Shown here one piece after another: positions 2,570 to 64,000 of a stretch of DNA of 64,000 nt (its first letter is position 1; each line of letters opens with the position of its first letter). A program made the position numbers and the translations under genes. This DNA is from a virus (taxonomy: Duplodnaviria > Caudoviricetes). Location: positions 2,068-66,067 of IMG/VR virus record IMGVR_UViG_3300046804_002424; one strand, 5' to 3'. The notes under the pieces are model-generated. The model made no database searches and had not been told where the DNA came from. It saw nothing but the letters and a program-made list of their open reading frames with translations.

Positions 2570-4204
2570 TTATTCAGTTATTACAACACATTCTTTAGCT
2601 GTTATCTTACAAAAAACCATAATTAATTTAACAGGGTATGGCTCTGAAACTTTCTCTGGAATAAATTTTGTTTGTCTTACAATATTGATAGCTTCTGTGT
2701 TACTTGGACATTTAGAATTAGGATCTTGTTCACATTCATCATTACCTGCTTTATCGCAATTGTTACATATTCTCCAATATTGTTTATCTTGAACAGGTGC
2801 ATCGTATCCGTATATAGAGTTAGAAAATATTCTTGTAATTTTATGTGTTGAACAATATTTTGTACTATATGTACACATATCATCTGATCTTTGATAAATC
2901 AGATCATTGCCACAACTACTAGCGTCGCATAATTTTTCTTTAGTAGTTTTACTATAATTTGGTCCCTCTTCTGCACATTGACTATTTATTGCATCTTGCA
3001 TAGTATCTATGAAATTTGAATCACAGCAATATCCTCTACTATAGTTTTTAGAATCTGGTATACATTTATTGGTTGTCCCAGTCTCATCTTTTAAACAGTC
3101 TTCCATACATGCTTTATAGCCAGTATACGGGCCGGTATCGGTTTCTGATTGATCTCCAACGGCTTTCTGAGAACACTCCGATCCATCGCACCACCATGGA
3201 TTTTCAGAACCGTCCCCATCCACAGGACAAGGTTGATTATATATTCCATAATACCCCCACCAAGATCCCCAAAAATTATTTGTACAACAATCGTCTCCGA
3301 TATATCCTGCATATGAATATGCTCCCCAATACCAACCTGAATTCCATGATCTTAAATCATAATTACAGTCTTCTAGATCTTCGCACTTGTAACAAGATGG
3401 GCATGTATAATAACCAGAGTCATTTCTGCCACATTCGCAATCGTCTAACTCCCATAAGTTTTCTATAGAAGTAGCAGCAGATGTTCTCAAAGAATATTCT
3501 TCTGGCATATCATTTGGATAGTCAGGACATTTTGCATTACTCCACCAATAATATCCGCTATCGCATTTTGCTTTTGGCTCTGTAGAACAATCAGTTTTTG
3601 ATCTTGTGCATGTTGTGTCGTATATTGGTATAGAAGTTGTGCATGACGAATCTGGGTATACTGGTTTTTCAATGCAAGCATATGGTTGAGTTACCAGTTC
3701 CCATTCTACTGTATATTCTTTTCTGACAATTTCATAATCATAATCGCATTCTCCTTCTTTACATTTAAAGTTAGAAGGCGCCTTACAACATCTTCCTTCT
3801 CTATCTTTATTATTAATTAATACACAATAATTATTATCATTATAATCTGATACACAGCCGAAGGTTTTACATCTCGCTATTCTTGGCTTAGCACAAGAAG
3901 ATGCTTCAAGATCATCACAATATTGACCGATAAAATTAGAACAGTTTGAATTATACCCATTACATTTAAGTGAATCAGGAGCATCTATTTCACTGTATAA
4001 AAAAGTTAAATTATCTCCGTATGCACTCCAGTTATATCCCCAACCCCACCAATTGTTCCAATATCCATTATACCACCAGTTTGTTTTACAGGCCATGCTT
4101 CCGCGAGAAGAATCACACACCTGATCATCTTTAAAGCATTTTTCTGTTTCGTCTGATGCAACATATTGCAGTTGACCATTTTTATCAAAATAAGTTTTAG
4201 ACAT
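2570..4204 (-). CDS. Very Cys/Trp/Tyr-rich putative virion protein
   Basis: About 47 Cys in about 545 aa (hand count); WWGWGY-type patches; coupled to the upstream gene (probable start MSKTY at 4204). Confidence 0.6.
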   Translation of the reverse strand: MSKTYFDKNGQLQYVASDETEKCFKDDQVCDSSRGSMACKTNWWYNGYWNNWWGWGYNWSAYGDNLTFLYSEIDAPDSLKCNGYNSNCSNFIGQYCDDLEASSCAKPRIARCKTFGCVSDYNDNNYCVLINNKDREGRCCKAPSNFKCKEGECDYDYEIVRKEYTVEWELVTQPYACIEKPVYPDSSCTTSIPIYDTTCTRSKTDCSTEPKAKCDSGYYWWSNAKCPDYPNDMPEEYSLRTSAATSIENLWELDDCECGRNDSGYYTCPSCYKCEDLEDCNYDLRSWNSGWYWGAYSYAGYIGDDCCTNNFWGSWWGYYGIYNQPCPVDGDGSENPWWCDGSECSQKAVGDQSETDTGPYTGYKACMEDCLKDETGTTNKCIPDSKNYSRGYCCDSNFIDTMQDAINSQCAEEGPNYSKTTKEKLCDASSCGNDLIYQRSDDMCTYSTKYCSTHKITRIFSNSIYGYDAPVQDKQYWRICNNCDKAGNDECEQDPNSKCPSNTEAINIVRQTKFIPEKVSEPYPVKLIMVFCKITAKECVVITE

Positions 4205-10883: not shown

Positions 10884-10884
10884 C

Positions 10885-28300: not shown

Positions 28301-31300
28301 ATGTAACGATAGTCTCTAGTGGCGGCACGAACTTCATTAGCTTGATAACGAATGCTTTCACGTATTTTTTTAGTTTTATTCTTTTCCTCTATCTCTATCA
28401 TGGATTTGTCAGCATTAGCGCTCATGCTCTTAGCACGGGCTATAGCAGCATCACCAGCAGTTTTTCTTTCTTGTTCTAGTCTAGCTTTTAAATCTGCTTC
28501 GCTTTCTTGCTTTAGGGTTGTTTGCGGTCTAGCACTGGCTTGCTCACGCATAGCCATTTCTCGTAACATTTTTCCCTGCATTGGATCTAGCTTTACTAAT
28601 TGACCAGTTACTGCATCCCAAACACCAGCTAAAGAAGTGTCAGTAAGTAATTGTTTACCATAAGCTTGACCAGTCCACCAAGTTCTTGATTTACCTTTAC
28701 CAAGTTTATCCGCAATTGCTTGAGCTTCTCCACCTACAGCAAATTTTTGGATAAACCCACCCATAGCTTTTCTAAACCATTTAGTTCCAGTTTTTGAAAA
28801 GTTTCGATTACGATCAGAAACAGTTGCAAAGCCCTGTGCCTTTAATTCTCCTGTAGTATATGGTTTATCTCTTTCAAATTTTTGTAAATTAGAATTTCCA
28901 GCTAATGTTGGAGGCGCAGCCTGTGTTTTTTCTTGTGCTTCTTGTTGTATTTTAGAAGCTGTTTTAGCTTCATTATCTATGTAAAGAGATGGATTCTTTC
29001 TAATTTCATTAGCTAATTGTCTAATAGTTTTAGCTCTAAGAGATCCGCTTCCGGTAATTTGTGCAGTCTTAAATGACGCTTTTGCATCTACCCATTTGGG
29101 AGGAAGTCCAACAAAATCATCACTTAAAACTCCGCCAAGACCATTTGGAAAATCGAATGGTTGCTGAGATTCTCTTTCTGCGAATGGTCCTCCTCTCATA
29201 GAAAGAAGAACATCTTCAAATAAATTTCCTCTAGTAGCATCATTAATTCCACTTAAAAATGCTTGTTTATCTCCCTTGCCAATTTTTGCCACATCACCCA
29301 TTCCCAAATCTTTAGCTAATAATCTACTAGCATAATTAACTCCTCTTACTATTCCTTCATCAAGAGCATTATTAAAAGCTCCTGAAGTATTAGAACTGAG
29401 ACCAACTCTTGGAGCATTGAATTTTCCTAGTGTTGGTAAATTCTTTAATGGTTTTCCTACAGCCTTTTCTAAACTTTTAGGACTTAATAAAAACTCGGCC
29501 TGTCTTGCTGGTCCTGCCTCTAATATTGCTGCTCCAACAGTTTTATTTCCTGCTTTTATATCATCAATTAAACCTCCACCAGCAAATCTTGCTACTCTTT
29601 GTGCTCTTGGACCTTTATTTTGGAATGCTTTATATGCTCCTTCTTTACTTCCTCCTCCAGTAAATATCATATTTCCAATAGGAATACCAAATAATTCGTT
29701 AATGTATTCTGCAAGTCCTGGTGTTCTGCCAGATTTGCTTATAATACTAAGATTAGCAGGATTAACTTTTCCGCCCTGAATTGATTTTTGTAACATTCTT
29801 CCAAATTGAGTTAATCTTGCACTTTTGGCATCGGCTAATCTTGTTGTTGGATCTCTAAAATATTTTGATAATACGGCATCTTTTTGTCCTGTTGTTTTAG
29901 CTTTACCGTATGCTTGATCTCCAACTGTTCTTTTTAATGTTCTGTCAAAATCTAATGCTCCATATCCACTAGCTAATATTTTTTCTAAAGCTATTTTATT
30001 TGGTAATATCGCGCCCTTAGCATTTGCTGTTATATCATCCACCATTGGTGCTTTTGCTGATCCGCCTTTTGCAAATCTATTCATTTTATGAAGTTTATTA
30101 ATTCCAATAGCTTGAACTGCTTTCTTTCTAATAACAAATTCTCCAGGTGTAAGCATTGCTGGAAAAGTATCAGAATTACCTTCTCCCGGAACAACACCTC
30201 CTGTGGCAAAACCTCTAATAAAACCACCATTATTTTGACGGCGTAATCCACCAGCAAATCCTGCTCCAAATCTTGTTAATGCTGATACTCCTCTAAATGC
30301 AGCAATAGCTGTTAATGCTGGTAATACTGTTTTTGCACTATCAGCTAATCTGATTAATGCGCTAGCAAGATCTAGACTTAATCTTACGAAAGTTTGAAAT
30401 GTTGAACTTTCTCCTAATGATCGGATTAAAGCAGTGAACTCTTCTCTTACTTTACTTATTTGATTAGATAAACTTAGTTGTGCCGTGGCCGCATCTTTGG
30501 CTAGTGATCCTTGTCCCTGCTGTGCAACTTTCAATGCTGCCTGTGCTGTTGCAAATTGTTGAATAAGTGGAATCACTTTACCAATCTGGCGGAATCCACC
30601 AAGTTCTTCTACAATCTGAGAGAATCTTAAATCTCGTGGATCAAGTTTACTCAATCCTTCGCTTAGTCTTCTAACTGCTTCATAAGGACCAACGAATTTA
30701 CCTTCTAAATCTGTTAAAACTACCCCATATTCTCTTAGGGCTTTGATTGTATCTCCTCTTTGAATTCTGGTAAAAATTGTTCTTAAACCAGTAGCAATTG
30801 TTTCTGCACTTTCACGAGTTGTGGCACGAACACTTGTAAATACAGCTAAGAATTCATTAAGAGCATCTTTACCTTGACTAACACCTTTGCTTGCTGTGGC
30901 AAACACACCACCAGTACGCTGAATAGCTGTAATTAAGTCACTAGCTTCTACCGCGAACTTAGCAGCCACAGAATTAACACTACCAAGAGCATCTTCTAAT
31001 TCTCCAGCACTAATTCCGAACTGTCTCATCAAAGCAATAGAACCTTCTACCGTATCTGATAAACTATCAAACGATGGAGCCAAAGCACTTAATGCTAACG
31101 CCCTAAGAGCTTTTTCAGTATCTTTAGCGCTGAGACCGGCCTGAGCCAATGTACTAGATACAGAAATCAAATCTTTTGACGCTATACCAAGACTTGTAGA
31201 TAGTCTAGTAATCTCTCCAACTAATGGGCTCAATTGAGATAAACTAGAATCTGTAACTTGAGCAACTCTTACTAATTCTCTATTAAAATCAATAAACTCA

Positions 31301-31785
31301 GTTGTTGCAGAAGAAATGGCATTTGTGAATCTATAAATAACTCCGGTAACTGTTGCAAACGCAGCGAATCTTCTAACGGCCAATGCTGACTGTCTACCGA
31401 ATTCTTCAAACCCACCGGCAGCTTGGTTTAGAGCATTATTGGTTTGTGTTAAGGCATTATTTGTATTTGCAGCTCCAGTATTTATTCTATTTAAATTTCT
31501 TGGTATATTACCAATATTATTATTAGTTACTGCTGCTGCTCTGCCCAATGCTGTTAAGGCTGCTGCTGCATTTCTGGCAGAAGTTTGTGTTGTATTTAAA
31601 GATGTATTTAATCTTGTAATAGATTGTTGTAATGTATTAACATTTCTTGCAGTATTATTATTTATATTAACATTTACATTAGCGGTAATACCAGATAACT
31701 GCCTTCTTATATTGGCAATTATAGGTCTAATGTTTGCTGGACCTCTTAAATTTAATTCTGCTGTGAGATTAAATGCTCTTGACAT
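22369..31785 (-). CDS. Tape measure protein (TP901-like core) with inserted cargo domains
   Basis: 3138 aa; Ala/Leu/Gln helical core (LAQAG...ATGLRTIFTRI); five DTxPAxLTPGEFV repeats; follows the tail tube and chaperones. Confidence 0.9.
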   Translation of the reverse strand: MSRAFNLTAELNLRGPANIRPIIANIRRQLSGITANVNVNINNNTARNVNTLQQSITRLNTSLNTTQTSARNAAAALTALGRAAAVTNNNIGNIPRNLNRINTGAANTNNALTQTNNALNQAAGGFEEFGRQSALAVRRFAAFATVTGVIYRFTNAISSATTEFIDFNRELVRVAQVTDSSLSQLSPLVGEITRLSTSLGIASKDLISVSSTLAQAGLSAKDTEKALRALALSALAPSFDSLSDTVEGSIALMRQFGISAGELEDALGSVNSVAAKFAVEASDLITAIQRTGGVFATASKGVSQGKDALNEFLAVFTSVRATTRESAETIATGLRTIFTRIQRGDTIKALREYGVVLTDLEGKFVGPYEAVRRLSEGLSKLDPRDLRFSQIVEELGGFRQIGKVIPLIQQFATAQAALKVAQQGQGSLAKDAATAQLSLSNQISKVREEFTALIRSLGESSTFQTFVRLSLDLASALIRLADSAKTVLPALTAIAAFRGVSALTRFGAGFAGGLRRQNNGGFIRGFATGGVVPGEGNSDTFPAMLTPGEFVIRKKAVQAIGINKLHKMNRFAKGGSAKAPMVDDITANAKGAILPNKIALEKILASGYGALDFDRTLKRTVGDQAYGKAKTTGQKDAVLSKYFRDPTTRLADAKSARLTQFGRMLQKSIQGGKVNPANLSIISKSGRTPGLAEYINELFGIPIGNMIFTGGGSKEGAYKAFQNKGPRAQRVARFAGGGLIDDIKAGNKTVGAAILEAGPARQAEFLLSPKSLEKAVGKPLKNLPTLGKFNAPRVGLSSNTSGAFNNALDEGIVRGVNYASRLLAKDLGMGDVAKIGKGDKQAFLSGINDATRGNLFEDVLLSMRGGPFAERESQQPFDFPNGLGGVLSDDFVGLPPKWVDAKASFKTAQITGSGSLRAKTIRQLANEIRKNPSLYIDNEAKTASKIQQEAQEKTQAAPPTLAGNSNLQKFERDKPYTTGELKAQGFATVSDRNRNFSKTGTKWFRKAMGGFIQKFAVGGEAQAIADKLGKGKSRTWWTGQAYGKQLLTDTSLAGVWDAVTGQLVKLDPMQGKMLREMAMREQASARPQTTLKQESEADLKARLEQERKTAGDAAIARAKSMSANADKSMIEIEEKNKTKKIRESIRYQANEVRAATRDYRYMQRRKKFAVGGGVGTDTVPALLTPGEFVINRKAASRIGASRLHQLNRADKIQGFNKGGAVGGVQKLNSGGLLQSTLAGMSPKDSARLGASITRNAQAFEQLERMVTDWPAEDIAMAMKKLDRSLEKGASTADALSSAVGAGVGGAGSERTPKKGVLQQTAGVSESRNITAPVGPTGFAASQARINQIAGNVGQYQRGQDVVDRRNTPMGMSSTSNMSNAGLQFAASLKNATTPLQTLTQAAKNAGTGLLQVGKSSVMAAGRGAGGLISSIGGGVLNSIGLGRFGSRGARGGGGAGGAGGAGDGGGGGGFGMAGMALTMVGGMGVEALSNAMGGEKTESGRTISAVGGSVANMASIGATVGSLFGPIGTGVGAAAGALAGFVMGLGDAKKANEEYAQSQKVAASQAATEKSGKALQAYMSKPGGAQKLAFFKSFNEASSVEAAAGEGIKRQRASGFGKMLGYQDETTADLGKRRAETQKAGAEQAQQFLEAEMMRTGKTFDEVSKSMSPAQFKTLTSNIAEADEKYAAFQLQRADEIKKLRDSGRGAEADAVQAQTNKDLAAMAENISRRATAEAGAAAQAKAAAEASKKLQVVMMQAVVSLEKSFNALDEVLNKSSFDLGQISGKADEIFSGKASLTSSTFAKTNNVLQNPNAYSAAERQAAISSSASRMGPTGQLVGRVAEFGARATEKATREANAVYNAGGSNAEVGASVTRNLTNDILATFGPNSSMAQTLINGVRETVDKAVEEAGDSSIDPAELIDKATGPLNKAAQQAGQLLIKNNENVAKHLEELGKVAERVVEIEQRRVDRTAALVEMQAQSGLATKEALGQKVSIGERINARFAGNRARLGIKNQGDFTPQNIANMRANAQKEQQALQAQIDKKSAETATNPGAAREVANLQLKLAKVNSTIDKTSKELEDLPASLEGAISDVTSEIQKRVAQLEAQKQAGSAFAEKLVGSTPQELMELNQTFNLLNNTLRGQLTTIYQSQAAQKAYVQAIKEGKTAQEAMSDAQAAYANENKKALSLFGELTQIAGIEGPELDVMKADLLEGFARAQGTGLDQNPFFQKILATLRQDPAERAKDDPVLLALVNRMETLKQAQVDAVRLQNENDRTIQKDLLQEVGKKILDSLAETQRAFVAAMNDIARRMGAAPPQPRANANGQLRANGGLIYAANGQYINFQSKGTDTVPAMLTPGEFVINAKSTRENLGLLTAINNSKGGRINYLAVGGQADLSGVSQRSATARQEDMTRSGLINQTTLGNKLDTVKTLSQNINNTTLTTKNNQIPSLDSSIGNSQDSNNKQFLLLNKNINNLSNSINSQKFNTGGMVYASDGKYINFQPKGTDTIPAMLTPGEFVVNAQSTKDNLGLLQAINSGYYATGGEIPSRSPNDLLRGVAGNLQYRMSLLKQSGKYWILNRKNKQRVDQEGKMRFGGVERDQSAYVEQAKDVTDAARIARNKYNWFDKNITQYQLIAEQNEAFRAYKKASPSEKITIELFQQMKDAPELFGKDAFNINVKEKEDNIRQKLDSGQNPGELYRKATKRQNYLYRVRANVEAALKIFDKEMTPNRNAIEILRGQYFGSEKEINLIDKVWNRLMAEKKLSGLQRDQTSIFNEFNPKNLPNKDYYNKGGVVYAEDGSYIPFKTPRAKALNDRRIQGEKVQEEKQKAAMLDRLRKQINAQLAPTDNRAMFELQQRLRASGYLEGKKQRKDAVIDDEEYEQIKFALDMIDEYKRFQYSQIPVNNKFNSEEEKTRRRNTPQLPPTLPHLTPKSKQYGGVVYANSGTLVPYQPMGTDTVPAMLTPGEFVVNRQASQKHLGLLQAINNGYYSKGGVAYLATGTPGTSVLDSNMTYLSDMLKKGADNLNLAFVNAVKKLNNITENNPEIGQVQTNGVSNNQINPSVSIEALGNRLDRFIEQLHNAIPSTVRLEVPTPIPVNVTINGASVLADVLNGPLGTLVQRAIKDAFDQKSRQNEGY

Positions 31786-54449: not shown

Positions 54450-54711
54450 TTTTTTGTGCTACTATTTTATAGAAGACACCTTCATAAAGTTCTTCTATAC
54501 CTTTAATGAGTTTATGATGTAACTTGCATAATGTAATTCCGTTATCAACAACGAACCGCAATCCTGGATAATTTGCCCATGTTTTAATATGATGAGCATT
54601 TAGTCCAGTTGTTGTATTACACCCAGGCCACTGACAAGTATGATTATCTCTAGAATAAACCTTTTTTCTCCATTCTTTATATAATGGATCTTTATAGTTT
54701 CTGAATGTCAT
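54436..54711 (-). CDS. HNH endonuclease
   Basis: RD..TCQ..GC...HHI...NGITLC..HH. Confidence 0.85.
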   Translation of the reverse strand: MTFRNYKDPLYKEWRKKVYSRDNHTCQWPGCNTTTGLNAHHIKTWANYPGLRFVVDNGITLCKLHHKLIKGIEELYEGVFYKIVAQKNGRL

Positions 54712-55672
54712 GATCTACCATATCTTTCACCAAATCAATAAAGGATATTTCTGGTTTCCAGTTTAAGTAGGTTTGAGCTTTTGTTGGCATACCTCTTAAA
54801 TATTCAACTTCTGCTGGTCGATATAGGTCAGGATCTATTTCAACATAATCTTTATAATTTAATCCTGCATATTCAAACGCTAATTCTAAAAAGTTTTGAA
54901 CTGACCAAGTGTTACCTGTTGCCACAACATAATCAGTGGGACTAGATTGTTGTAGCATTAACCACATTGCTCTTACATAATCTTTTGCGTGTCCCCAGTC
55001 TCTATGGGCACTAAGATTACCTAGCTTTAATTTTTGTGATGTTTCGCCACTTTTAACTTGACCAATATACTTAGTAATTTTCCTAGTAACAAAGTTTTCT
55101 CCTCGTCGTGGACTTTCGTGATTAAACAATATTCCACAGCAACCAAATATTCCATAGCCTGTTCTGTAAATTCGCACCATATTGTGAGCCGCCAATTTTG
55201 CTACTCCGTAAGGACTCTGTGGCAACAAAGCGGTGTCTTCGTCTTGATATTTTAGTCCTGTTAAATTAGTACTATAATTAAATCCAAACATTTCGCTAGT
55301 GCTTGCCTGATAAAATTTGGTACTAAAAGAATAATTTTTAATGGCCTCTAGGAGGTTCACAACTCCAATAGTATCAATTTCGAATGTTGTTGTTGGTTGT
55401 TTGAAGCTGGTTCCAACATGACTCTGAGCAGCCAGATTATAAACTTCATGAGGCTGGTGACGATGAATAACGTCGTTGCATCCGCTAGGATCTGTTAGAT
55501 CAAATTCTTCCAAAATGAAATTTGGATTGTTTAGCAGATGGGAAACTCTGTCTAGGGTGTTTGTGCTACTGCGGCGATATAGGCCAATCACAGTATAATT
55601 TTTCTCTAAAAGTAAGTCGGCCAAATAACTTCCGTCTTGTCCATTAACTCCTGTGATAATTGCTTTTTTCAT
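54692..55672 (-). CDS. gmd: GDP-mannose 4,6-dehydratase
   Basis: ITGVNGQDGSYLA, NLAAQSHV, QASTSE, YGVAK, FNHESPRRGENFVTRKI, RDWGHAKDYV. Confidence 0.97.
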   Translation of the reverse strand: MKKAIITGVNGQDGSYLADLLLEKNYTVIGLYRRSSTNTLDRVSHLLNNPNFILEEFDLTDPSGCNDVIHRHQPHEVYNLAAQSHVGTSFKQPTTTFEIDTIGVVNLLEAIKNYSFSTKFYQASTSEMFGFNYSTNLTGLKYQDEDTALLPQSPYGVAKLAAHNMVRIYRTGYGIFGCCGILFNHESPRRGENFVTRKITKYIGQVKSGETSQKLKLGNLSAHRDWGHAKDYVRAMWLMLQQSSPTDYVVATGNTWSVQNFLELAFEYAGLNYKDYVEIDPDLYRPAEVEYLRGMPTKAQTYLNWKPEISFIDLVKDMVDHDIQKL

Positions 55673-56484
55673 GATTCGTCCTTTGCTACGCTTTCTGGTG
55701 TGAAAAATGGTCGATCTACTGAATTGTCTGCATAATTATGATATTCTTCTAATTTATTTTTATATTTTTCGGTTGCTAATTTTAGTATTTCCATCTCTCT
55801 TCCTTCTCGTTCCCTAATATCTTCATCCTCTAACATGCGTATTAATCCTACCCAACTACTTTTACCATCCTCAATTCTTTTAATACGTTGTTCACGGGTG
55901 GCCTTAAGATCTTTACTTATTTTTTGTTGTTCGTTTAGAAGTTTTGTATATTCATTAGTATAATTAGCAATACTATTTCGCGCAAAGCTTAATTGAGTTT
56001 CCATATTGATCAGTTTCGCCGTGTCTCTTTGATCTTCTGGCTTGTCGTATTCTTTATCAACATCCTTTTGTAATTTTTCTGTCATGGTAATATGACGCTT
56101 TCGTTCCTTCATGCTTCGATTAATCAAAATATCAATAGTAATAAATTGTTTAATTTGTAATTCTTCAGCAGGAAGAACATCTTCTCGGAACTGCTTAATT
56201 AATCCTATCCATGTATTTTCAAAGTATTCTAACTCTCCTGTTTCAGCATCAAACTGACGGGCGATTTCTGGCCAAAAGGTTTTACTATGTAGTTTATATC
56301 GTAGTGTTTCGTTATCTTTTTTCTCATCACTGCTCAGGTATAAATTATTTTCATCAATGTATCTTTTGATGGGAGCTTCACTACGATTTAATGATTCTGC
56401 TATTTGTTCTATGGTTAGATCTTGAACATTATCTCTTATGTATTGTTCTTCATCTAAACTTAGTTGTCCTCGTTTTTTGGGCAT
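55669..56484 (-). CDS. Putative terminase small subunit (HTH plus coiled coil)
   Basis: N-terminal LTIEQIAESLNRS HTH; upstream of TerL in the same operon. Confidence 0.45.
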   Translation of the reverse strand: MPKKRGQLSLDEEQYIRDNVQDLTIEQIAESLNRSEAPIKRYIDENNLYLSSDEKKDNETLRYKLHSKTFWPEIARQFDAETGELEYFENTWIGLIKQFREDVLPAEELQIKQFITIDILINRSMKERKRHITMTEKLQKDVDKEYDKPEDQRDTAKLINMETQLSFARNSIANYTNEYTKLLNEQQKISKDLKATREQRIKRIEDGKSSWVGLIRMLEDEDIREREGREMEILKLATEKYKNKLEEYHNYADNSVDRPFFTPESVAKDES

Positions 56485-57131
56485 GAATAGTCTTTCATAA
56501 GAAGTGATATGTGGCTTTTTAATTTATCTAATAGTGGCTTGTTTACTTTAACTCCGTGCTTCAACTTTAAATAAATTTCTCTATATTCTGCTATAACAAT
56601 ATGATCATCTAAAAAGTTTATAATTTCTTGATTTTGCAGAAGAAGGTTGGTGTCGTATTTGTCCGGTATGGGGGTATCATTATTTTCATCGTCGTGATGA
56701 ATACTTTTGGGTTTCATAATATTTTTTTTATTTTCGTTACGATTGCTCCAACTAGCATATAGTTCACAATCATTTTTATTAGAATATTGTAAACACTGAC
56801 TTTTACTGGATGAGCAATGTTTATCATACAAAGGACAACTCAAGCATGGTTTGTCGGGCCTTTGATAATTATTACGCTTATAATTAAATAAGCGATTTCT
56901 TACATGGGTCCAGAGAAAGTTTTCTAATGGGCGCTTTTGATCATATTTCTGCAAGCCTTCTATAGCGAATATAGCAGCTTGTTGCTTCATATCATCAAAG
57001 TCATGGTAACCAAATTTAAATTTGTATGCTAATCTTTTGCTAATATTATCTAATACTTTTAAGAAATCTTCTTCTGTGACGCCATATTCTTCATATATAT
57101 TATTATTCTTGTTTTTGTTTTTCTTCGTCAT
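56460..57131 (-). CDS. Phage-encoded sigma70-family sigma factor with Cys-rich insertion
   Basis: Region 2 DDMKQQA.IF.IEGL.KYD...LENFLW.HVRNRL.N.KR, then CLSC...C...C...C. Confidence 0.75.
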   Translation of the reverse strand: MTKKNKNKNNNIYEEYGVTEEDFLKVLDNISKRLAYKFKFGYHDFDDMKQQAAIFAIEGLQKYDQKRPLENFLWTHVRNRLFNYKRNNYQRPDKPCLSCPLYDKHCSSSKSQCLQYSNKNDCELYASWSNRNENKKNIMKPKSIHHDDENNDTPIPDKYDTNLLLQNQEIINFLDDHIVIAEYREIYLKLKHGVKVNKPLLDKLKSHISLLMKDYSCPKNEDN

Positions 57132-57258
57132 CTAATAGTTCCGCTATAGACTTGCCTTCTGGCAACTCTAAGTCTTTTTGAATTTGGTCGTTTAAGCTGG
57201 CTTCTGCTTTAGTTTCTAATACAGAATCAACAAATTGTGGATTTTGATCATTTGTCAT
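57103..57258 (-). CDS. Small acidic protein (51 aa, not in ORF track)
   Basis: MTNDQNPQFVDSVLETKAEASLNDQIQKDLELPEGKSIAELLDDEEKQKQE; GAGG SD; overlaps the sigma gene start. Confidence 0.5.
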   Translation of the reverse strand: MTNDQNPQFVDSVLETKAEASLNDQIQKDLELPEGKSIAELLDDEEKQKQE

Positions 57259-57336
57259 GATGAACCTCTTGCTATTTTGGTCAACAATACTATAATAAAC
57301 AGTTACACATTTTGTGCAATTTACGGAGTTATAAAA

Positions 57337-57549
57337 ATGGCGAATTACAAGAAATGGCTCGATAATGAACTGGATTTTATCAAAAACAATCAGGATTCTA
57401 TGAATGATGAAATTTTGGCCACTAAGTTAAGCGAAATGACTGGTCAAAGTATTACACGAAGCATGATTCGTCGCCAAAGACGAAAGTTGGATATTAAGAA
57501 GAAACGAGGCCGTCCACGCAAAGAGAAAGTGAGTGAAGTTCATGGTTAA
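57337..57549 (+). CDS. Small DNA-binding protein (HTH-like plus AT-hook)
   Basis: W...ELDFI......DE.LA..L......IR..RR.L and KKKRGRPRK; GGAG SD; upstream TTGCTA-N16-TATAAT at 57269-57296. Confidence 0.65.
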   Translation: MANYKKWLDNELDFIKNNQDSMNDEILATKLSEMTGQSITRSMIRRQRRKLDIKKKRGRPRKEKVSEVHG

Positions 57550-57757
57550 AATGTTATACGCTGCTATCTTTATGTTAGCTTATTGTTCGTCAGAATGTTA
57601 TGCTAACTGTTGCTGGGTTCAACAACCAGCTCCTATTGTTGTGCAGGAAGTGAGGCCTGTGGTATATTATCAGGCGATTCCTGTAACATACTATTACTAT
57701 GTGCCAGTAGCTCTTCCGGCACCAGTATATAACCCTTGGGTTCGATACTGCTACTAA
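57542..57757 (+). CDS. Small secreted Tyr/Pro/Val-rich protein
   Basis: Signal-peptide-like N-terminus followed by VVYYQAIPVTYYYYVP. Confidence 0.5.
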   Translation: MVKMLYAAIFMLAYCSSECYANCCWVQQPAPIVVQEVRPVVYYQAIPVTYYYYVPVALPAPVYNPWVRYCY

Positions 57758-57787
57758 ATTAGCAAACTTCGACCCTAGGATCTAAAA

Positions 57788-57818
57788 GGGGCGGGTGGAA
57801 ACACTCGCCTCTTTTTTT
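57788..57818 (+). terminator. Intrinsic terminator
   Basis: GGGGCGGGTG-GAAA-CACTCGCCTC followed by a T run. Confidence 0.85.
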
Positions 57819-58158
57819 ATAAATGTTCATAAAGAAACTGGCCAATTCTATGTGAGGGTGCTTATTTTTTTTGGACCACCCGGCATTTTTATGAAAATCG
57901 TACGATTTCCATGCTAAAACAAAAAAACCCCCCTTTCGCCCCGCCGTTTTTGACGTAACTCGTTACTGGACAAGGACTTACGACTAATATGCTGATCGAC
58001 ACGATCTTCTGTTTAAGAGCAAATGCTATGCCAAAGAAAAAATATGTTTGGCACGATATTTGCTGTACATAACCTTACGATATTGTAAGAAAAGATTTTT
58101 ATTGACTTCTAAAGTTTTTGTGGTATAATGTCGATATAAGAAGTAAGAGAGAAAGAAA

Positions 58159-58380
58159 ATGGAAAAGACGATTCACACTAACGACTTCATCAAGAGCCTT
58201 CCTAAGATTGTTCAGAAGAAGGTATGGAAGGTTACCGATAAGAATGGTACGGTTGTTCAGTACGTTGGTGCAACCGATAATCGTAAGAGTACCGCTCAAG
58301 AGTATATCAACGAGAAGTATCCTTCTCAAACTCTTACCCTTACCTTTTCGCATTTCAACGGATTGATTACGATTCGTTGA
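58159..58380 (+). CDS. Early hypothetical protein (73 aa)
   Basis: Follows promoter 58102 and a purine-rich leader. Confidence 0.7.
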   Translation: MEKTIHTNDFIKSLPKIVQKKVWKVTDKNGTVVQYVGATDNRKSTAQEYINEKYPSQTLTLTFSHFNGLITIR

Positions 58381-58454
58381 AAAATATTTTCTAAGGTATT
58401 GACAGGCTAAAATCCGATAGGTATAATAGAGCGAAAGAAAGAAAAGGAAATCAA

Positions 58455-58604
58455 ATGACCATCCAAGTTCAGAATACGATCCGCCGCCTTGTTGCTCGCC
58501 ATGGATATTCGGCCACCTTTGTTCAGCATATGGGTGAGGGTATCTGCCTCTATAGCATCGGCGGGATCATGTACCGTATCCGTGGTGATGGTACGATTCT
58601 CTAA
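58455..58604 (+). CDS. Early hypothetical protein (49 aa)
   Basis: MTIQVQNTIRRLVARHG...; follows promoter 58399 and an AAGGA SD. Confidence 0.65.
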   Translation: MTIQVQNTIRRLVARHGYSATFVQHMGEGICLYSIGGIMYRIRGDGTIL

Positions 58605-58656
58605 AAAATATTTTCTGGGGATTGACACGGAAAAATCCGATAAGTATAATAGCAGC

Positions 58657-58782
58657 ATGACACGAATCACCTGGACAACCGAAAGCCGATACCGATACAA
58701 TCTCTTTGTTGACGGTATCAAGGTAGGATACAATCTTTCTCTGGACGATTTCTTTACCCTTCTGAAAAGGTATGATATATGA
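58657..58782 (+). CDS. Early hypothetical protein (41 aa), probably leaderless
   Basis: ATG lies 7 nt after TATAAT (58645-58650). Confidence 0.55.
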   Translation: MTRITWTTESRYRYNLFVDGIKVGYNLSLDDFFTLLKRYDI

Positions 58783-58967
58783 ATAGCCTCGACAAGATTC
58801 TCGCCGCTATGCGTTCTGGCAAGTATGGTAGCGTTATCGACCCAAAGGGTAACGCTCATGTAGGTATCATCAACGCTATCATGCGAGAAGATGGTAGCGG
58901 GAAAAACTGGATCGTGACACTGACCAACCGTACAGTAAGTGAACGCGTGTTCATTCATGCCACCTGA
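58779..58967 (+). CDS. Early hypothetical protein (62 aa)
   Basis: ATGA-coupled to the previous ORF. Confidence 0.65.
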   Translation: MNSLDKILAAMRSGKYGSVIDPKGNAHVGIINAIMREDGSGKNWIVTLTNRTVSERVFIHAT

Positions 58968-59241
58968 GAGGGGGTATGGGGCTAATCCCTCATAGGTGGG
59001 GGATCGGCGGGCCGATTTTGACGTAACTCATTACGGCACAACGACTTAGGGCTAATCACATGATCGTATCGAATAAGTGATTAAGAAAATAAAATATTTG
59101 GCATGATATTTGCTATAAGAATATTTATTGTTTTGGCATAGCGTTTGCTGTAGGAAACCTTACGATATTTTAAGAAAGATTTTTGTTGACTTCTAAAGTT
59201 GGCATGGTATAATGCCGATATAGAAAGTAAGGAGAAAAGAA

Positions 59242-59370
59242 ATGACAACGCTCATCGTAATCGGAAACAAGTATAAGGTTTATCGTGACATGGAAAACGG
59301 AAAGCGTAGACTGCTCGGCACGTTCAAGAGCAGCGACGAGGCTATCCGATTCATGAACAATGTGCGATAA
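59242..59370 (+). CDS. Early basic micro-protein (42 aa), paralog of 60484-60624
   Basis: MTTLIVIGNKYKVYRDMENGKRRLLGTFKSSDEAIRFMNNVR; AAGGAG SD. Confidence 0.7.
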   Translation: MTTLIVIGNKYKVYRDMENGKRRLLGTFKSSDEAIRFMNNVR

Positions 59371-59442
59371 ATATCCCTATTGACGATTCAAGTTTCGATC
59401 TGTAGAATCCCGATATAGAAAGTAACCCAAAAGGAAAAGATC

Positions 59443-59646
59443 ATGAGCAACGACTTTGTTTACGATATGAGCGAAATCAACGAAGAGGAAATCATGAAGG
59501 GTTGGGAAGAAATGAACGAAGCGGACTACATTCCGGGCCTTGATGATGGCGAAGGTTGGGATCCGATCATGGGTGACGATGACGAATGGATCGACACGGA
59601 TGACGAATGGCTGGACGATTTTGCAGGTGAGGAGGATTTTGCCTGA
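59443..59646 (+). CDS. Highly acidic early protein
   Basis: About 27 of 67 residues are Asp/Glu, one Lys, spaced Trp/Phe; has its own promoter. Confidence 0.7.
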   Translation: MSNDFVYDMSEINEEEIMKGWEEMNEADYIPGLDDGEGWDPIMGDDDEWIDTDDEWLDDFAGEEDFA

Positions 59647-59860
59647 CCACCCATTTGGAGGGGTACTATACTCTCCCCCATTGTGGGGGAAACAGCAAAT
59701 GTTATGCCAAATGCGAATGGCATAGGATTCGCGGGGCCGATTTTGACATAACTCCTTATGGCACAACGACTTACGAACAGTATCACCTAATCCTGACAGC
59801 TAGCAAATCCCGTGCCAAAACACCATCTGCCTAAAAAATGTCATCCCCGCAGTTGGAGGG

Positions 59861-59941
59861 TGCCGCAAAATGCTACACTATGCTGTTTTTCTCGGGAAAA
59901 TCGCGTAGCAAAATGCTACACCACTGTAGCAAAATGCAACG
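59861..59941. promoter_or_regulatory. Three phased palindromes, consensus TGTAGCAAAATGCTACA (enhancer-like)
   Basis: Start at 59861, 59904 and 59925, between divergent sigma54 sites. Confidence 0.6.
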
Positions 59942-60072
59942 CTCAAAAACTGGGCCCACAAAATAGGCATGACGTAAACCCTTGTGGCATAAGGACTTAG
60001 GAAAACCAAAGATTTTTTGAGTTTGGCACACCGATTGCTCTTATATATGGTATAAGAAAGAGAGAGTTGAAA

Positions 60073-60240
60073 ATGGTTTATATCGAAGATATTCAGAATG
60101 AGTTGGTTAGGTTGTATGGTGAAAATGGTAAGACTTTCGAGATTGTGCCGATTGGGTCGGCTTTTCTGGTTGGTCGATCTGTATATGATGCAGTAGAGAT
60201 TAGTGGTTGGGAAGATTTTGATCTTCTGGAAACTTTTTGA
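60073..60240 (+). CDS. Early hypothetical protein (55 aa), candidate sigma54-driven gene
   Basis: MVYIEDIQNELVRLYGENGKTFEIVPIG...; starts 34 nt after sigma54 site 60023-60039, with no consensus sigma70 -35. Confidence 0.6.
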   Translation: MVYIEDIQNELVRLYGENGKTFEIVPIGSAFLVGRSVYDAVEISGWEDFDLLETF

Positions 60241-60260
60241 GGATAGGAAAGGTAGATAAG

Positions 60261-60419
60261 ATGAGAAAGTTTAGTTATTACCGTGGTTCAGATGATGGAT
60301 ACGATTATTCCCGTGATAATCGGGATGGATACGTTGACGAGTTTTTGAAGTCTCTCGACCGTGATCGTGAGATGAAAGAAAGAGAAGAAAAAGCGAAAAA
60401 CGAAAAAGAAAAATCGTAA
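60261..60419 (+). CDS. Small charged hypothetical protein
   Basis: MRKFSYYRG...; AAGG SD. Confidence 0.55.
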   Translation: MRKFSYYRGSDDGYDYSRDNRDGYVDEFLKSLDRDREMKEREEKAKNEKEKS

Positions 60420-60483
60420 GTTTTTTGCTTGCATCTTCAAGATTAGACGCTAGAATGTCGATAGATAAGAAAGAAAGTTAGAT

Positions 60484-60624
60484 ATGAAAACTGTGCTGAT
60501 CATGGTCGGGAAGAAATATAAGGTTTACTCGGAAAACAATGGAAAGCGTAAACTGCTCGGAGTGTTCAACACTTCGCAAGATGCTATCCGGTTTATGAAT
60601 ACTTTTTCCGCTTGTGCTGCCTGA
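60484..60624 (+). CDS. Early basic micro-protein (46 aa), paralog of 59242-59370
   Basis: MKTVLIMVGKKYKVYSENNGKRKLLGVFNTSQDAIRFMNTFSACAA. Confidence 0.7.
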   Translation: MKTVLIMVGKKYKVYSENNGKRKLLGVFNTSQDAIRFMNTFSACAA

Positions 60625-60666
60625 GAGAATCTGATAGACTCCACACTCACCCATAGGAATAGAAAA

Positions 60667-60990
60667 ATGAAAAGCCCGATTCTTGCCGATTTTCAGCGTG
60701 GTATTCTGGAGTGGTTTGAAGGTATCGCCATTCCGCATCAGCCTAGCGTAGCCGATGGGGTATATACCCCCATTCGGAGTGAGAAGGTTATGAAGTTCAA
60801 TCGGAAGGCTCTCCGCAAGATTGGCAAGCGGAAGGTGGAAAAGGCCGATCCCCGACTTGTGGGGGGTGAAGATAAGATGATTGTTAAGGTCGGCAAGCCC
60901 GGTAGTCGAGAGAGGGTAGAGGCCCTGCGTAGTCAGTACGAGGCAGTGGCCGCTTGCGGTGAGGAAGTATCCCCCTTCGCGGAGGGGTAG
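60667..60990 (+). CDS. Early hypothetical protein (107 aa)
   Basis: AGGA SD; basic central patch; PGS.ERVEALR motif. Confidence 0.65.
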   Translation: MKSPILADFQRGILEWFEGIAIPHQPSVADGVYTPIRSEKVMKFNRKALRKIGKRKVEKADPRLVGGEDKMIVKVGKPGSRERVEALRSQYEAVAACGEEVSPFAEG

Positions 60991-61259
60991 ACTTCTGTAC
61001 ACTACCTCTTGGTGGGGGTAAACTTTTGTACACTCCCCTTTAGGGGGGTTGTTGTCAAAATGGCAGCCGGCGGGCCGAAATCGTCGTAAGTGCTTGTGGC
61101 ATATAGACTTAGGGCTAATGAGGACATCGTATCGAAAAGGTGTTTAAGGAAATAAAATATCTTTGGCATAGTATTTGCTGTGTAGAAAATTTTTTATTTT
61201 GTTGTTGACTTCTAAAGTATGACCTGTAAAATGTCGATATAAAGGAAAAGGAAAAACAA

Positions 61260-61379
61260 ATGCTTGGACTGGTGTTTTTAATGATTCTGGGCTATATGAT
61301 GTATGTCGAAATCGTCACCTTTTTTGAGAATCGACGAGATACGAAAAGAATCCGCGAGTATTTTCAGAATCGTGGTTGA
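61260..61379 (+). CDS. Single-pass membrane micro-protein (39 aa)
   Basis: MLGLVFLMILGYMMYVEIVTFFENRR...; follows promoter 61205. Confidence 0.6.
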   Translation: MLGLVFLMILGYMMYVEIVTFFENRRDTKRIREYFQNRG

Positions 61380-61423
61380 CAAGTAAAGTTTAGCCTGTAA
61401 GATGTCGATATAAGGTAAATAAG

Positions 61424-61627
61424 ATGGAAATCGGACAACAAATCACCGCTACCTATAACGATGGGCGAATCTTTTCTGGTACAATAGTTCAAATCGAAAT
61501 CGGATCAAATGACGATGTGGTATATGGTGATGGTTCAATCATGCCTAATCGAACCATGATTAGGATCAAAAAAGAAAATGGAAACTATGCCAGTTTCTAT
61601 CTTGACAAGTGTTTTTCAGTCGGGTAG
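61424..61627 (+). CDS. Small beta-barrel (SH3/KOW-like) early protein
   Basis: MEIGQQI....DGRIFSGTIVQIE pattern; has its own promoter. Confidence 0.6.
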   Translation: MEIGQQITATYNDGRIFSGTIVQIEIGSNDDVVYGDGSIMPNRTMIRIKKENGNYASFYLDKCFSVG

Positions 61628-61653
61628 AATCCCGATATAAGAAAGAGAAAACA

Positions 61654-61749
61654 ATGTATAACGACTTTGCTAGCAACCTTATCGTGTGTTTTTTGCTCGG
61701 CTGTTGGGCATACCTTTTTATCTATATTCCTCTTTATTTTTGGTGCTAA
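61654..61749 (+). CDS. Membrane micro-protein (31 aa)
   Basis: MYNDFASNLIVCFLLGCWAYLFIYIPLYFWC; follows promoter 61602. Confidence 0.55.
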   Translation: MYNDFASNLIVCFLLGCWAYLFIYIPLYFWC

Positions 61750-61941
61750 ATGATTACCAACGACATCACCAACGTAGTGATCATGACCGCTAAGACTCTT
61801 TCGGGTACTAAGGTTGTGGTTAACAGTTTCGACGTTATCATCGAAAACGGAAAGCCGCTGATTATGTTTTTCGTTAAGGATGAAAATGGCCAGTTCGGAC
61901 TTTTCAATCAGAACGAACTCACCGATTATGTGGAGAGTTGA
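61750..61941 (+). CDS. Early hypothetical protein (63 aa)
   Basis: ATG directly abuts the previous ORF's TAA. Confidence 0.6.
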   Translation: MITNDITNVVIMTAKTLSGTKVVVNSFDVIIENGKPLIMFFVKDENGQFGLFNQNELTDYVES

Positions 61942-61985
61942 CAAGTAAAGTTTAGGCTGTAGAATGTCGATATAAGGAAAAGAAA

Positions 61986-62081
61986 ATGTATCGTGCTGGT
62001 TTCATCTTTTTCGTGTTCATTCTGCCGATTCTGAACATTGTGTTTTGCCTTGGATTTCTGGCTGGAAAGGCTGCCCAATGA
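61986..62081 (+). CDS. Membrane micro-protein (31 aa)
   Basis: MYRAGFIFFVFILPILNIVFCLGFLAGKAAQ; follows promoter 61938. Confidence 0.55.
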   Translation: MYRAGFIFFVFILPILNIVFCLGFLAGKAAQ

Positions 62082-62191
62082 ATCGTGATTTGGCATACGT
62101 TGGTTTACTGGTCGCTGGTAGCGTTGTGCTTTCCACGATCATGCTCTACAGTTTTTTGGTCTATAGCATCATCACGGGAGATTGGTCATGA
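62078..62191 (+). CDS. Membrane micro-protein (37 aa)
   Basis: MNRDLAYVGLLVAGSVVLSTIMLYSFLVYSIITGDWS; ATGA-coupled at both ends. Confidence 0.6.
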   Translation: MNRDLAYVGLLVAGSVVLSTIMLYSFLVYSIITGDWS

Positions 62192-62496
62192 CTCACGCCG
62201 AAGCAGTTAAGATGGTTCGTGGTAAGCGTAATAAGGATAGCCGAAAGATTGGTAATAATACCTACGCGGAAATCCTTAACGATAATACTGTAGGCATTAA
62301 GTTGCACAGTACCTACGTTGTAAAGATTCGGGACGATGGTACTTATACTCTCAATAGCGGTGGCTGGCAAACTGCTACCACTAAAGATAGGATTAACCAG
62401 TATAGTCCCGTGAGGGTTTATCAACGCAAGTTCGAATGGTTTGTTACTATTAACGGTAAAGAGTATCCATTCATTGATGGTATGGTGGTATCATGA
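62188..62496 (+). CDS. Early hypothetical protein (102 aa)
   Basis: KIGNNT...LH...V......LNSGGWQT.TTKDRIN motif; a paralog begins at 63955. Confidence 0.7.
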   Translation: MTHAEAVKMVRGKRNKDSRKIGNNTYAEILNDNTVGIKLHSTYVVKIRDDGTYTLNSGGWQTATTKDRINQYSPVRVYQRKFEWFVTINGKEYPFIDGMVVS

Positions 62497-62563
62497 ATAT
62501 AACGATTTATGATTTGCTGAAATATTCTACTAAACGGTGGCCGAACTAAAGAAAGGGCCAAGG

Positions 62564-62671
62564 ATGGTCGATATTAACTGGGTACAAATAGGTGTGGGAT
62601 TTATTGCTGGCATTATTGGTTCTTACCTTGTTTCTGACCTTGTTTTTCCAGTAAATAGTAATAAGGAATAG
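62564..62671 (+). CDS. Membrane micro-protein (35 aa)
   Basis: MVDINWVQIGVGFIAGIIGSYLVSDLVFPVNSNKE. Confidence 0.5.
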   Translation: MVDINWVQIGVGFIAGIIGSYLVSDLVFPVNSNKE

Positions 62672-62675
62672 TAAC

Positions 62676-62753
62676 ATGACTATTATGGACAAGTGTACAC
62701 TGGTGGTGTCGTTTGTGGTAGGGTGTGTAGCCGCTTGGGTTGTGAACAGTTGA
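62676..62753 (+). CDS. Membrane micro-protein (25 aa)
   Basis: MTIMDKCTLVVSFVVGCVAAWVVNS; AAGGA SD. Confidence 0.45.
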   Translation: MTIMDKCTLVVSFVVGCVAAWVVNS

Positions 62754-62954
62754 CCTAAGTGCTTGTGGCGTAAAGAGTTACGACAAACTCGGCGGGCCGC
62801 GATTTTTTTTGGCACGATATTTGCTACATAGCAAGCGCCGTGCCAAACGACTGCCCGAAACCTTACGACATTGCAACGAAAAAATATTTGTGGTGGTGGG
62901 CTTGACAGGCCGATATTAGACTGTAGAATCAGCGTATCACCCGGAGAGAAAAAG

Positions 62955-63137
62955 ATGATCAACTCTTTTGACGATGTGAATCGGATTCTGGCGGAACTGG
63001 CCGAGATGGGCACGATTGAACCGATGGTCGAGCCGATTGATGAGAACGATTGTCACCCAATGGACTATGCGGACGTTACTGGGTTGTGGGATGAAATGTA
63101 TCCCGAACCGCTTGACGCAAACGATTTTGTGTGGTAA
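62955..63137 (+). CDS. Acidic early protein (60 aa)
   Basis: GGAG SD, promoter 62902; Asp/Glu-rich. Confidence 0.65.
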   Translation: MINSFDDVNRILAELAEMGTIEPMVEPIDENDCHPMDYADVTGLWDEMYPEPLDANDFVW

Positions 63138-63158
63138 AGTCTAACTAAGGAGAAAAAC

Positions 63159-63485
63159 ATGAGTCACCCTGATCCCCTGTTCGATCCCGATAACTCTTAT
63201 GAGGATGATAACGTGGACTATAACTACGACGATCACGACGATTTCTTCCGCGATGATCTGGATGAGTTGCGTGGTCGTGAAGTCGAGTATGACAGCCCCG
63301 ATTCCGACCCGGATGGTGATGGCGACTACGATCCCGACTATGATGTTTGGGATAGCATGGACGGAGATCACGACAGTGCCATGACCAGTTGCGGCTGGGG
63401 AACTGACGAGGACTACGGTTACTATGGCGATGATGATCGTGAGGATTTCCATAGCGATGACGGCTACGGAAGTTACGACGATTGA
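63159..63485 (+). CDS. Extremely Asp-rich early protein (108 aa)
   Basis: About 42 Asp/Glu and no Lys; AAGGAG SD; has its own promoter. Confidence 0.75.
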   Translation: MSHPDPLFDPDNSYEDDNVDYNYDDHDDFFRDDLDELRGREVEYDSPDSDPDGDGDYDPDYDVWDSMDGDHDSAMTSCGWGTDEDYGYYGDDDREDFHSDDGYGSYDD

Positions 63486-63654
63486 GCCTAAAGCCTTGAT
63501 GCATAACACTTTGCGTCAAGGCCGGCCGCCCCCGTTCAACGTAAACTCTTATCTGCTAATGACTTATACCAAAAAAGATTTTTTCAAGAAAAACCTATTG
63601 ACAGACCGATAATACTTGATAGAATACTCGTATCACCACCAACAAGGAGCGATT

Positions 63655-63894
63655 ATGAATACTCTCTGTGCTACGATTTTTGGTATTGCTTGGGCCGTTG
63701 TTTTCTGTCTGATCATGAAGATCACTTTCATGCTGGGCTGGGGAGAGCCTAACGTGATCCCAGAAGCGGGTGAAACCTATGCTGGTTGGTGGGCTATGCT
63801 CTTTTTCTGTAATGTTGCCCCTTGGGCTTTCTGGGGTGTGTTCTTCGATGTTGTTGGATGCGTTCAACGATTTTTTCGTCGTTGCAAGGCTTGA
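63655..63894 (+). CDS. Two-helix membrane protein (79 aa)
   Basis: AAGGAG SD before ATG 63655; two hydrophobic segments. Confidence 0.65.
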   Translation: MNTLCATIFGIAWAVVFCLIMKITFMLGWGEPNVIPEAGETYAGWWAMLFFCNVAPWAFWGVFFDVVGCVQRFFRRCKA

Positions 63895-63954
63895 CAACTA
63901 AAGATTCATCCTGTAAAATATCGATATAAGGTTATCACCCCAAAAGGAAAGAAC

Positions 63955-64000
63955 ATGACTCACACCGAAGCGACTAAGATGGTTCTCGGAAAGCGTAACC
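63955..64000 (+). CDS. Start of a paralog of 62188-62496 (truncated by window)
   Basis: MTHTEATKMVLGKRN versus MTHAEAVKMVRGKRN. Confidence 0.6.
   Translation, partial: MTHTEATKMVLGKRN

Follow-up and report, generated by a model that had tools for sequence, protein, structure and literature searches.

Putative sigma-54 promoter elements arrayed in both orientations at the head of the early arm of a freshwater phage family

The sigma-54 holoenzyme is one form of bacterial polymerase that binds its promoters and yet is unable to start transcription without an ATPase activator. Here we describe a dense array of sigma-54-type sites in an uncultivated tailed phage (Caudoviricetes), found in a 64-kb window that covers positions 2068-66067 of the 66-kb viral record IMGVR_UViG_3300046804_002424, which is estimated to be 44% complete. 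The 17-mer TTGGCAY-N5-TTGCT occurs there in ten exact copies, six on the plus strand and four on the minus strand, all of them within 58018-62846 and thus at a density of ten sites per 4.8 kb. From the letters of the DNA we infer that these copies are probably sites for the sigma-54 holoenzyme. With a slighter lean, we take them for host sigma-54 -24/-12 elements that would most likely act as activator-dependent promoters layered on sigma-70 cassettes. An earlier note had reported the ten 17-mers at these positions and on these strands, and each of them was found again. They are given below with a degenerate eleventh copy, the scores being those of an E. coli matrix that is described afterwards.

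58018 to 58034, minus strand: sigma-54-type site, antisense to the early genes and divergent with 58048; exact match, 17.1 bits
58048 to 58064, plus strand: sigma-54-type site, sense; exact match, 20.9 bits
59098 to 59114, plus strand: sigma-54-type site, sense, upstream member of a tandem pair spaced by 35 bp; exact match, 19.3 bits
59133 to 59149, plus strand: sigma-54-type site, sense, followed by an inverted repeat (59158-59173) and then a sigma-70-like promoter (59186-59213); 16.2 bits
59694 to 59710, minus strand: sigma-54-type site, antisense, facing the 3' hairpins of gene 59443-59646; 17.9 bits
59718 to 59732, plus strand: degenerate eleventh copy TGGCATAGGATTCGC with TTCGC replacing TTTGC, divergent with 59694; below 12.1 bits
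59802 to 59818, minus strand: sigma-54-type site, antisense, divergent from 60023; exact match, 19.8 bits
60023 to 60039, plus strand: sigma-54-type site at the expected -35 place, 34 nt 5' of the ATG at 60073; 18.3 bits
61163 to 61179, plus strand: sigma-54-type site, sense, 26 bp 5' of the sigma-70-like promoter 61205-61232; 16.9 bits
62809 to 62825, plus strand: sigma-54-type site, sense, overlapping convergent with 62830; exact match, 20.9 bits
62830 to 62846, minus strand: sigma-54-type site, antisense, 56 bp 5' of the sigma-70-like promoter 62902-62929; 19.8 bits

Such an array is not expected by chance. In 100 dinucleotide-preserving shuffles of the window, the pattern appeared 0.05 times on average and never more than once, and the reversed pattern had no match across the full 66-kb record. 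For a graded measure we used a scoring matrix built from the base counts at the 17 positions of 42 intergenic sense E. coli sigma-54 sites mapped by chromatin immunoprecipitation sequencing (Table 1 of Bonocora et al. 2015, PMC4591121). In 200 first-order simulations, 0.45 sites per window reached at least 16 bits on average; the real window has ten, none of them outside 58-63 kb. The absence of sites from the late block, as the earlier note had it, was confirmed: the exact pattern occurs nowhere else in the window, and the late block holds three weak matches of 12.4-14.3 bits, where simulated windows give 4.4 at that low threshold. A chance origin of the sites is ruled out by these shuffle, reversed-pattern and simulation controls together with the off-spacing controls described below.

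The ten sites score 16.2-20.9 bits. When sites are drawn at random from the E. coli matrix, their median is 17.5 bits and their 10th-90th percentile range 12.1-21.3 bits, and on this scale the window sites rank at the 36th-87th percentile. In score, the window sites resemble ordinary experimentally bound E. coli sigma-54 sites, which agrees with the -24/-12 likeness claimed earlier and would be consistent with binding. They have the same GG/GC spacing and the same extended consensus TTGGCAC..N..TTGCT as the E. coli promoters (PMC4591121). Unlike bacterial sigma-54 promoters, however, the phage copies form an array in both orientations with some copies overlapping, most of them lie 5' of sigma-70 promoters and not directly before genes, and neither an enhancer-binding protein gene nor a recognisable enhancer was found with them.

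The motif is maintained across a large phage family. Relatives of the terminase were found at more than 599 loci in IMG/VR (77-97% identity), whereas the closest terminases of cultured phages, which are from Bacillus phages, are only 24-26% identical; the complete relatives are 150-224 kb long. Across 80 terminase loci (1.17 Mb), TGGCA-N6-TTGC is present in 138 copies and its reversed control in none. The spacing, which sets the GG and GC doublets exactly one helical turn apart, is rigid: 214 kb of early regions contain the N6 form 136 times and each of the forms N2-N5 and N7-N10 only 0-3 times, and 497 kb of late DNA contains three copies of TGGCA-N6-TTGC. By the E. coli matrix, 130 sites of at least 16 bits fall in 208 kb of the relatives' early regions, compared with one in 257 kb of late DNA, and at least one site is present in 26 of the 29 relatives that have an early region of at least 4 kb. 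The consensus of 124 distinct copies is TTTGGCACAg.ATTTGCT.T, in which the two blocks hold the information and the spacer varies. In relative G001, whose terminase is 97% identical, two divergent arms run from about 144 kb, the late arm leftward and the early/replication arm rightward, and the sites fill the first 3.6 kb of the early arm. A single 4-5 kb stretch likewise holds 9 of the 12 matches in G002 and 8 of the 9 in G006.

These data also bear on the idea that the motif is functionless passenger sequence, which spreads with duplicating and recombining cassettes as in the PeSL cassettes of T4-type phages. It would suit the early region, which against G001 is a mosaic of 74-88% identical patches in rearranged order in spite of the 97% terminase identity, and in which cassette parts recur as repeat families. 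However, the 124 distinct copies keep their blocks and spacing while spacer and flanks vary, cassettes exist both with and without sigma-54-type sites, and the motif recurs in unrelated phages, and we consider this explanation very improbable.

The recurrence was seen in an IMG/VR scan with the pattern TTTGGCAY-N3-ATTTGCT, which returned at least 120 loci. Among the matches listed, at least two TGGCA-N6-TTGC sites are present in 47 loci and at least three in 37; of these 37, 19 have a blastn match to the family and 18 have none. A control pattern with the spacing one base longer gave 107 loci, none of them clustered. Two phage records, G412 and G413, are clearly unrelated to the family, and neither has an enhancer-binding protein or sigma-54 gene. 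In G412 (222 kb, 34% G+C), all eight clustered sites lie 20-62 nt 5' of a co-oriented ATG (L356, G412:C1:205494-216088). In G413, a complete genome of 46.5 kb with terminal repeats, all 11 sites (L336-L338, at 14626-37366) are on the strand of a leftward replication block that encodes polymerase B, a helicase, YqaJ, Rad52 and the single-stranded DNA-binding protein SSB, and five tandem sites head this block. Except for SSB and weak polymerase matches, G001, G412 and G413 have no common protein at BLASTP E<1e-4. Since the same DNA signal is used without a common protein, a host factor is more likely to be its reader, and sigma-54 is the known reader of this signal. As a separate observation, G416 (L215, G416:12477-16197) has motif clusters interleaved with many CATGCCAA(C/T)ATT repeats, which are extra -24-like half sites.

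The position of the sites relative to genes and sigma-70 promoters was then considered. Bases 1985-57131 of the window carry large minus-strand genes, including those for the terminase, the portal and a 3138-aa tape-measure protein, and from about 57.9 kb some two dozen small open reading frames (ORFs) without known relatives (ORFans) follow on the plus strand. Most of these early genes are preceded by TTGAC-N16-18-TAnAAT promoters close to the consensus, which have the leader (C)GATATAAG in common. By our own reading of the plus-strand genes, all ten sites are intergenic, and all lie in repeated cassette gaps. The intergenic placement and the pairing described in the earlier note were both borne out, with 58018/58048 divergent, 59098/59133 tandem and 62809/62830 convergent and overlapping. 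Its statement that the sites of four cassettes lie 25-55 bp upstream of a sigma-70 -35 is roughly right: measured from TTGC to the sigma-70-like -35 hexamer, the distances are 38 bp (58048), 37 bp (59133), 26 bp (61163) and about 56-78 bp (the 62809/62830 pair). Overall, about half of the sites are less than 100 bp 5' of a -35 hexamer and most lie 30-80 bp 5' of sigma-70-type early promoters, the favoured distances to the -35 being 37-39 bp when the site is sense and 31-33, 42-44 and 52-56 bp when it is antisense.

Although six window sites are sense, a gene follows directly at 60023 alone. This site belongs to a group of eight among the 50 sense sites after which no -35 follows; the motif itself occupies the place of the -35 and the spacer, (T/A)CTATATA comes next, and then the usual leader begins. 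In these eight, the leader G(A/G)TATAAG starts 11 nt past the C of the GC doublet. At 60023, no TTGAC follows the site, which overlaps an extended -10-like TGGTATAAG (60048-60056). By the rule that sigma-54 transcription starts 19 bp from the motif centre (PMC4591121), the predicted start is the second base of the leader, which in our own reading is within about 2 nt of the start expected in the sigma-70 cassettes. The earlier note had offered three roles, namely a tie of early genes to host sigma-54 signalling, a repressor or roadblock over sigma-70 promoters, and a sponge for sigma-54. As a candidate role, the first fits best of the three, in view of the sense sites that replace the -35 and the promoter-position sites in unrelated phages.

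Several observations weigh against host sigma-54 promoters, and we collect them here. The four minus-strand sites in the window have no gene ahead of them, as had been remarked before. In the family, about 60% of the sites oppose the early genes (78 of 124 distinct copies, with 46 sense; 80 of 130 by matrix, with 50 sense), in contrast to the sigma-70-type early promoters, of which 175 are sense and 14 antisense in 45 early regions. Neighbouring sites are found as convergent overlapping pairs with an offset of 19-21 bp (12 cases), as divergent pairs at 23 or 30-32 bp (9 cases) and as tandems at 26-27 bp (6 cases) or 35 bp (2 cases). The overlapping convergent pairs and the 26-27 bp tandems cannot all be filled simultaneously, and such layouts look more like arrays for a DNA-binding protein. 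The sites are also dispensable, with none of the true type in G003, a single one in G004, and 58018 decayed in the close relative G001 through a 2-bp insertion and one substitution. On the protein side, profiles for Sigma54_activat (PF00158) and Sigma54_DBD (PF04552) had no match in G000-G004, and the HU/IHF family had none in 7 records; the earlier statement that the window has no gene for an enhancer-binding protein, RpoN or IHF thus holds for the window and also for the complete relatives searched by profile. No conserved enhancer accompanies the sites. Finally, rpoN was seen in three of five metagenome bins with related contigs and not in the other two, the bins being unreliable for host assignment. 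In this phage family, the layout of the sites is not that expected of simple gene promoters.

The layout in particular raises the alternative that the sites are operators for another phage or host DNA-binding protein, for example a head-to-tail dimer on TTGGCAC and TTTGCTG 11 bp apart, which would control the sigma-70 early promoters. Placement 5' of sigma-70 promoters in either orientation agrees with this, as do the tandem arrays, the inverted groups of two or three sites with offsets of about 20 and 43 bp, and the CTGCCA-WWW-TGGCAG palindromes, which share the TGGCA word and adjoin sites in some relatives. In a five-genome profile, 26 raw ORFs of G001 are common to the site-rich G002 and G006 and absent from G003 and G004. 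However, the match to sigma-54 spans all informative positions with the exact spacing, for which coincidence is unlikely; the same motif is used by phages without a detectable common protein beyond those named above; and no DNA-binding Pfam domain was found in 9 profile candidates tested or in 10 early window proteins. We therefore regard operators of this kind as an unlikely, if still serious, explanation. One of the profile candidates is an actin-like protein (Pfam Volactin, E 1.3e-64; G001:35657-36658, L340:3657-4658), which has counterparts of 85-86% identity in G002 and G006, whereas none was found in G003 or G004.

Other candidate partner proteins were examined and set aside. Sub-threshold PF14532 (Sigma54_activ_2) matches belong to a RuvB-like protein and not to an enhancer-binding protein, and the PF00158 match in G412 is a ClpB-like two-ring chaperone; Sigma54_DBD is absent from G412-G416. 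A T7-type RNA polymerase (PF00940) was not found in a search that had no positive control. The phage does encode a sigma factor of its own next to the sites:

56460 to 57131, minus strand: sigma-70-family factor of 223 aa (Sigma70_r2), first gene of the leftward late arm, adjoining the site cluster

Its Sigma70_r2 score was 26.2 bits in the genome search (cut-off 24) and 23.7 bits, just under, in the protein scan, and Sigma70_r2 matches are also present in G001, G002, G003 and G006. This factor was rejected as the reader of the sites, the block spacing being unlike -35/-10 and the factor being present in the site-less G003 as well.

A different use of the same polymerase is proposed in the third role of the earlier note, in which the sites would bind the sigma-54 holoenzyme and never fire, and replicating phage DNA would drain it from host promoters, such as those of sigma-54-dependent stress or defence operons. 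For such a decoy orientation does not matter, a copy number anywhere between 0 and 10 or more, as the relatives show, would be tolerable, and near-consensus strength and the lack of an activator gene would be suitable. Moreover, PMC4591121 describes inactive occupancy of DNA by sigma-54 at many E. coli sites. Those non-productive, intragenic or antisense sites and the phage sites both include sites that face no nearby gene and possibly never fire, but the E. coli ones are single, scattered over a 4.6-Mb genome and mostly intragenic, whereas the phage sites are intergenic, clustered and near-consensus. A pure sponge would require neither the preferred positions at 37-39 and 31-33 bp nor confinement to the first 4-5 kb, and overlapping pairs would squander its capacity. 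The motif in promoter position in G412 and G413 and the eight sense sites that replace the -35 in register with the leader speak against it further, and we judge a decoy to be quite improbable. The roadblock role is likewise weakened, since in E. coli intragenic sigma-54 sites had no roadblock effect (PMC4591121); repression by sigma-54 overlap is cited there for E. coli, and this part of the proposal may apply at a site such as 60023.

In E. coli, the divergent sigma-54 promoters of the hycA/hypA and zraP/zraS pairs each have a shared enhancer. Both are found in Table 1 of PMC4591121 (OS27/OS28 and OS38/OS39, respectively), and the window pair 59802(-)/60023(+) likewise diverges, over 221 bp, with palindromes at 59905-59919 and 59927-59940 in between. 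In the phage, however, the minus-strand partner has no gene, and the palindromes are not conserved companions of the sites; in the relative G006 they lie downstream of the sites and not between them. Apart from this comparison, early regions are enriched in 15-bp palindromes that consist of two 6-bp arms and an A/T triplet. CTGCCA-WWW-TGGCAG was found 22 times in 6 records and GTAGCA-WWW-TGCTAC 7 times in 7 records, and TGCCA-N3-TGGCA does not occur in late DNA. The palindromes are often paired 29 bp apart, adjoining sites or directly 5' of sigma-70-type promoters, with many copies in L052 and L079.

Returning to activator-dependent promoters for host sigma-54, the mechanism we propose is as follows. 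The sites would have entered the intergenic cassettes that recur over the first 4-5 kb of the early arm, and these first cassettes would gain a second layer of control that needs sigma-54 and an active enhancer-binding ATPase. Sense sites would be activator-dependent promoters that either stand in tandem with a sigma-70 early promoter or take over its -35 position (60023), and would give the first early genes a second expression route once a host activator is on. Where a site overlaps the sigma-70 promoter (60023), it could also repress by competition. Antisense sites might be divergent promoters that send transcripts into the preceding cassette, or mere polymerase-holding sites. As no such ATPase of the phage was found and the sites have no constant enhancer sequence, activation would have to come from a host activator acting from solution on near-consensus sites, or from an unrecognised phage factor. 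Near-consensus sites bind the sigma-54 holoenzyme tightly. Buck and Cannon in 1989, and Morett and Buck in the same year, are said to have found that strong sites can fire through activators from solution without an enhancer, and this would fit the missing phage activator and the missing fixed enhancer.

The cassettes that carry the sites have a regular build. In the gaps between gene groups, the repeated parts come in a set order, namely G/C hairpins with a terminator-like hairpin that has a T run, a conserved box, optional sigma-54-type sites, sometimes an inverted repeat CCTTACGAyATTGTAAGG, and the sigma-70-type promoter. The box, written in full, is GACGTAAC..TTACGGCAC..GACTTAGG; it stands behind the 3' hairpins of each gene group and occurs also in relatives without sigma-54-type sites. 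The remaining cassette features of the window are:

58102 to 63919, plus strand: 12 sigma-70-like early promoters before small ORFan genes, with the leader given above; starts at 58102, 58399, 58622, 59186, 59380 and 61205
61376, 61602, 61938, 62902, 63598 and 63891, plus strand: remaining promoter starts of this series
58073 to 58088: inverted repeat CCTTACGATATTGTAA, after site 58048 and before the sigma-70-like promoter 58102-58129
59019 to 59055, plus strand: conserved cassette box GACGTAAC..TTACGGCACAACGACTTAGG, repeat families D1, D5 and D6
57952-57990, 59745-59780, 59970-60006, 61081-61118, 62755-62787 and 63538-63570: further copies of the cassette box

The inverted repeat stands between sense sites and the next -35 at 58073-58088, 59158-59173 and 62861-62876 and is kept in several relatives; it may serve as a protein site, or form a hairpin with which a sigma-54-driven transcript would begin. 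The box hairpin keeps its pairing through changes from CGTAA/TTACG to CATAA/TTATG, along with G-T pairs on the plus strand, and these compensating changes hint at an RNA element. No known RNA family was found in 57000-64000, and a search for RNA sequencing runs that list the region returned none. Of the ten early proteins tested, only that of 62188-62496 matched a family (Kyano_Gp96, function unknown).

The PeSL cassettes of T4-type phages (PMC2839356, PMC4122927) are likewise described as repeated units of a stem-loop and an early sigma-70 promoter between small ORFans, and they too show mosaic shuffling with gain, loss and replacement of genes between close relatives. The phage described here is of another lineage and is not a T4-type myovirus, as its 3138-aa tape-measure protein and its terminase indicate, and its cassettes add the box, the inverted repeat and the sigma-54-type sites. 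The early cassettes work like PeSL units without belonging to the T4-type PeSL. Composition also changes along the window, from about 33% G+C in the late block (1-57000) to 41-45% in the early region (57900-64000), with a flip in the sign of the GC skew. The tape-measure match is followed by large ORFs of 2232 aa (without a PHROG match) and 1865 aa, the very large structural genes lying at 22369-31785, 4197-10895 and 10885-16482, all on the minus strand.

Clues to the host were sought as well. Related contigs fall into metagenome bins of mixed taxa, and such bins are poor evidence of the host. A GDP-mannose 4,6-dehydratase gene lies inside the late block (54692-55672, minus strand; Pfam E 2.8e-115), but it gave no host signal, with at most 55% identity in 401 sampled genomes of one phylum, and a 63% match proved to be a related phage contig itself. 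Shine-Dalgarno-like sequences precede 13 of 26 late starts and 17 of 23 early starts; such sequences together with consensus TTGACA/TATAAT promoters speak against a Bacteroidota host.

The element type is known; what appears to be new is its putative use by phages, the bidirectional and overlapping layout without an activator gene, and the recurrence in unrelated phages. A full-text literature search, which did not extend to supplementary files and most subscription journals, found no published phage genome with an array of sigma-54 sites. A bolder proposal, to which we give little credence for now, is that several unrelated uncultivated phages (the 150-230 kb freshwater family, the 46-kb G413 and the 222-kb G412) transcribe or control genes by way of the host sigma-54 holoenzyme without encoding an AAA+ activator, through a so far undescribed phage-encoded means of opening or exploiting closed complexes, and that the bidirectional overlapping sites of the family are a switch over its sigma-70 early cassettes. 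If the sigma-54 reading of the sites is right, phages would have a novel means of tapping or disarming a host transcription system. In a family that is abundant in lake metagenomes, judging by its terminase loci in IMG/VR, infection would, if the sites are indeed used, be tied to host states that switch activators on, such as nitrogen limitation or envelope stress.

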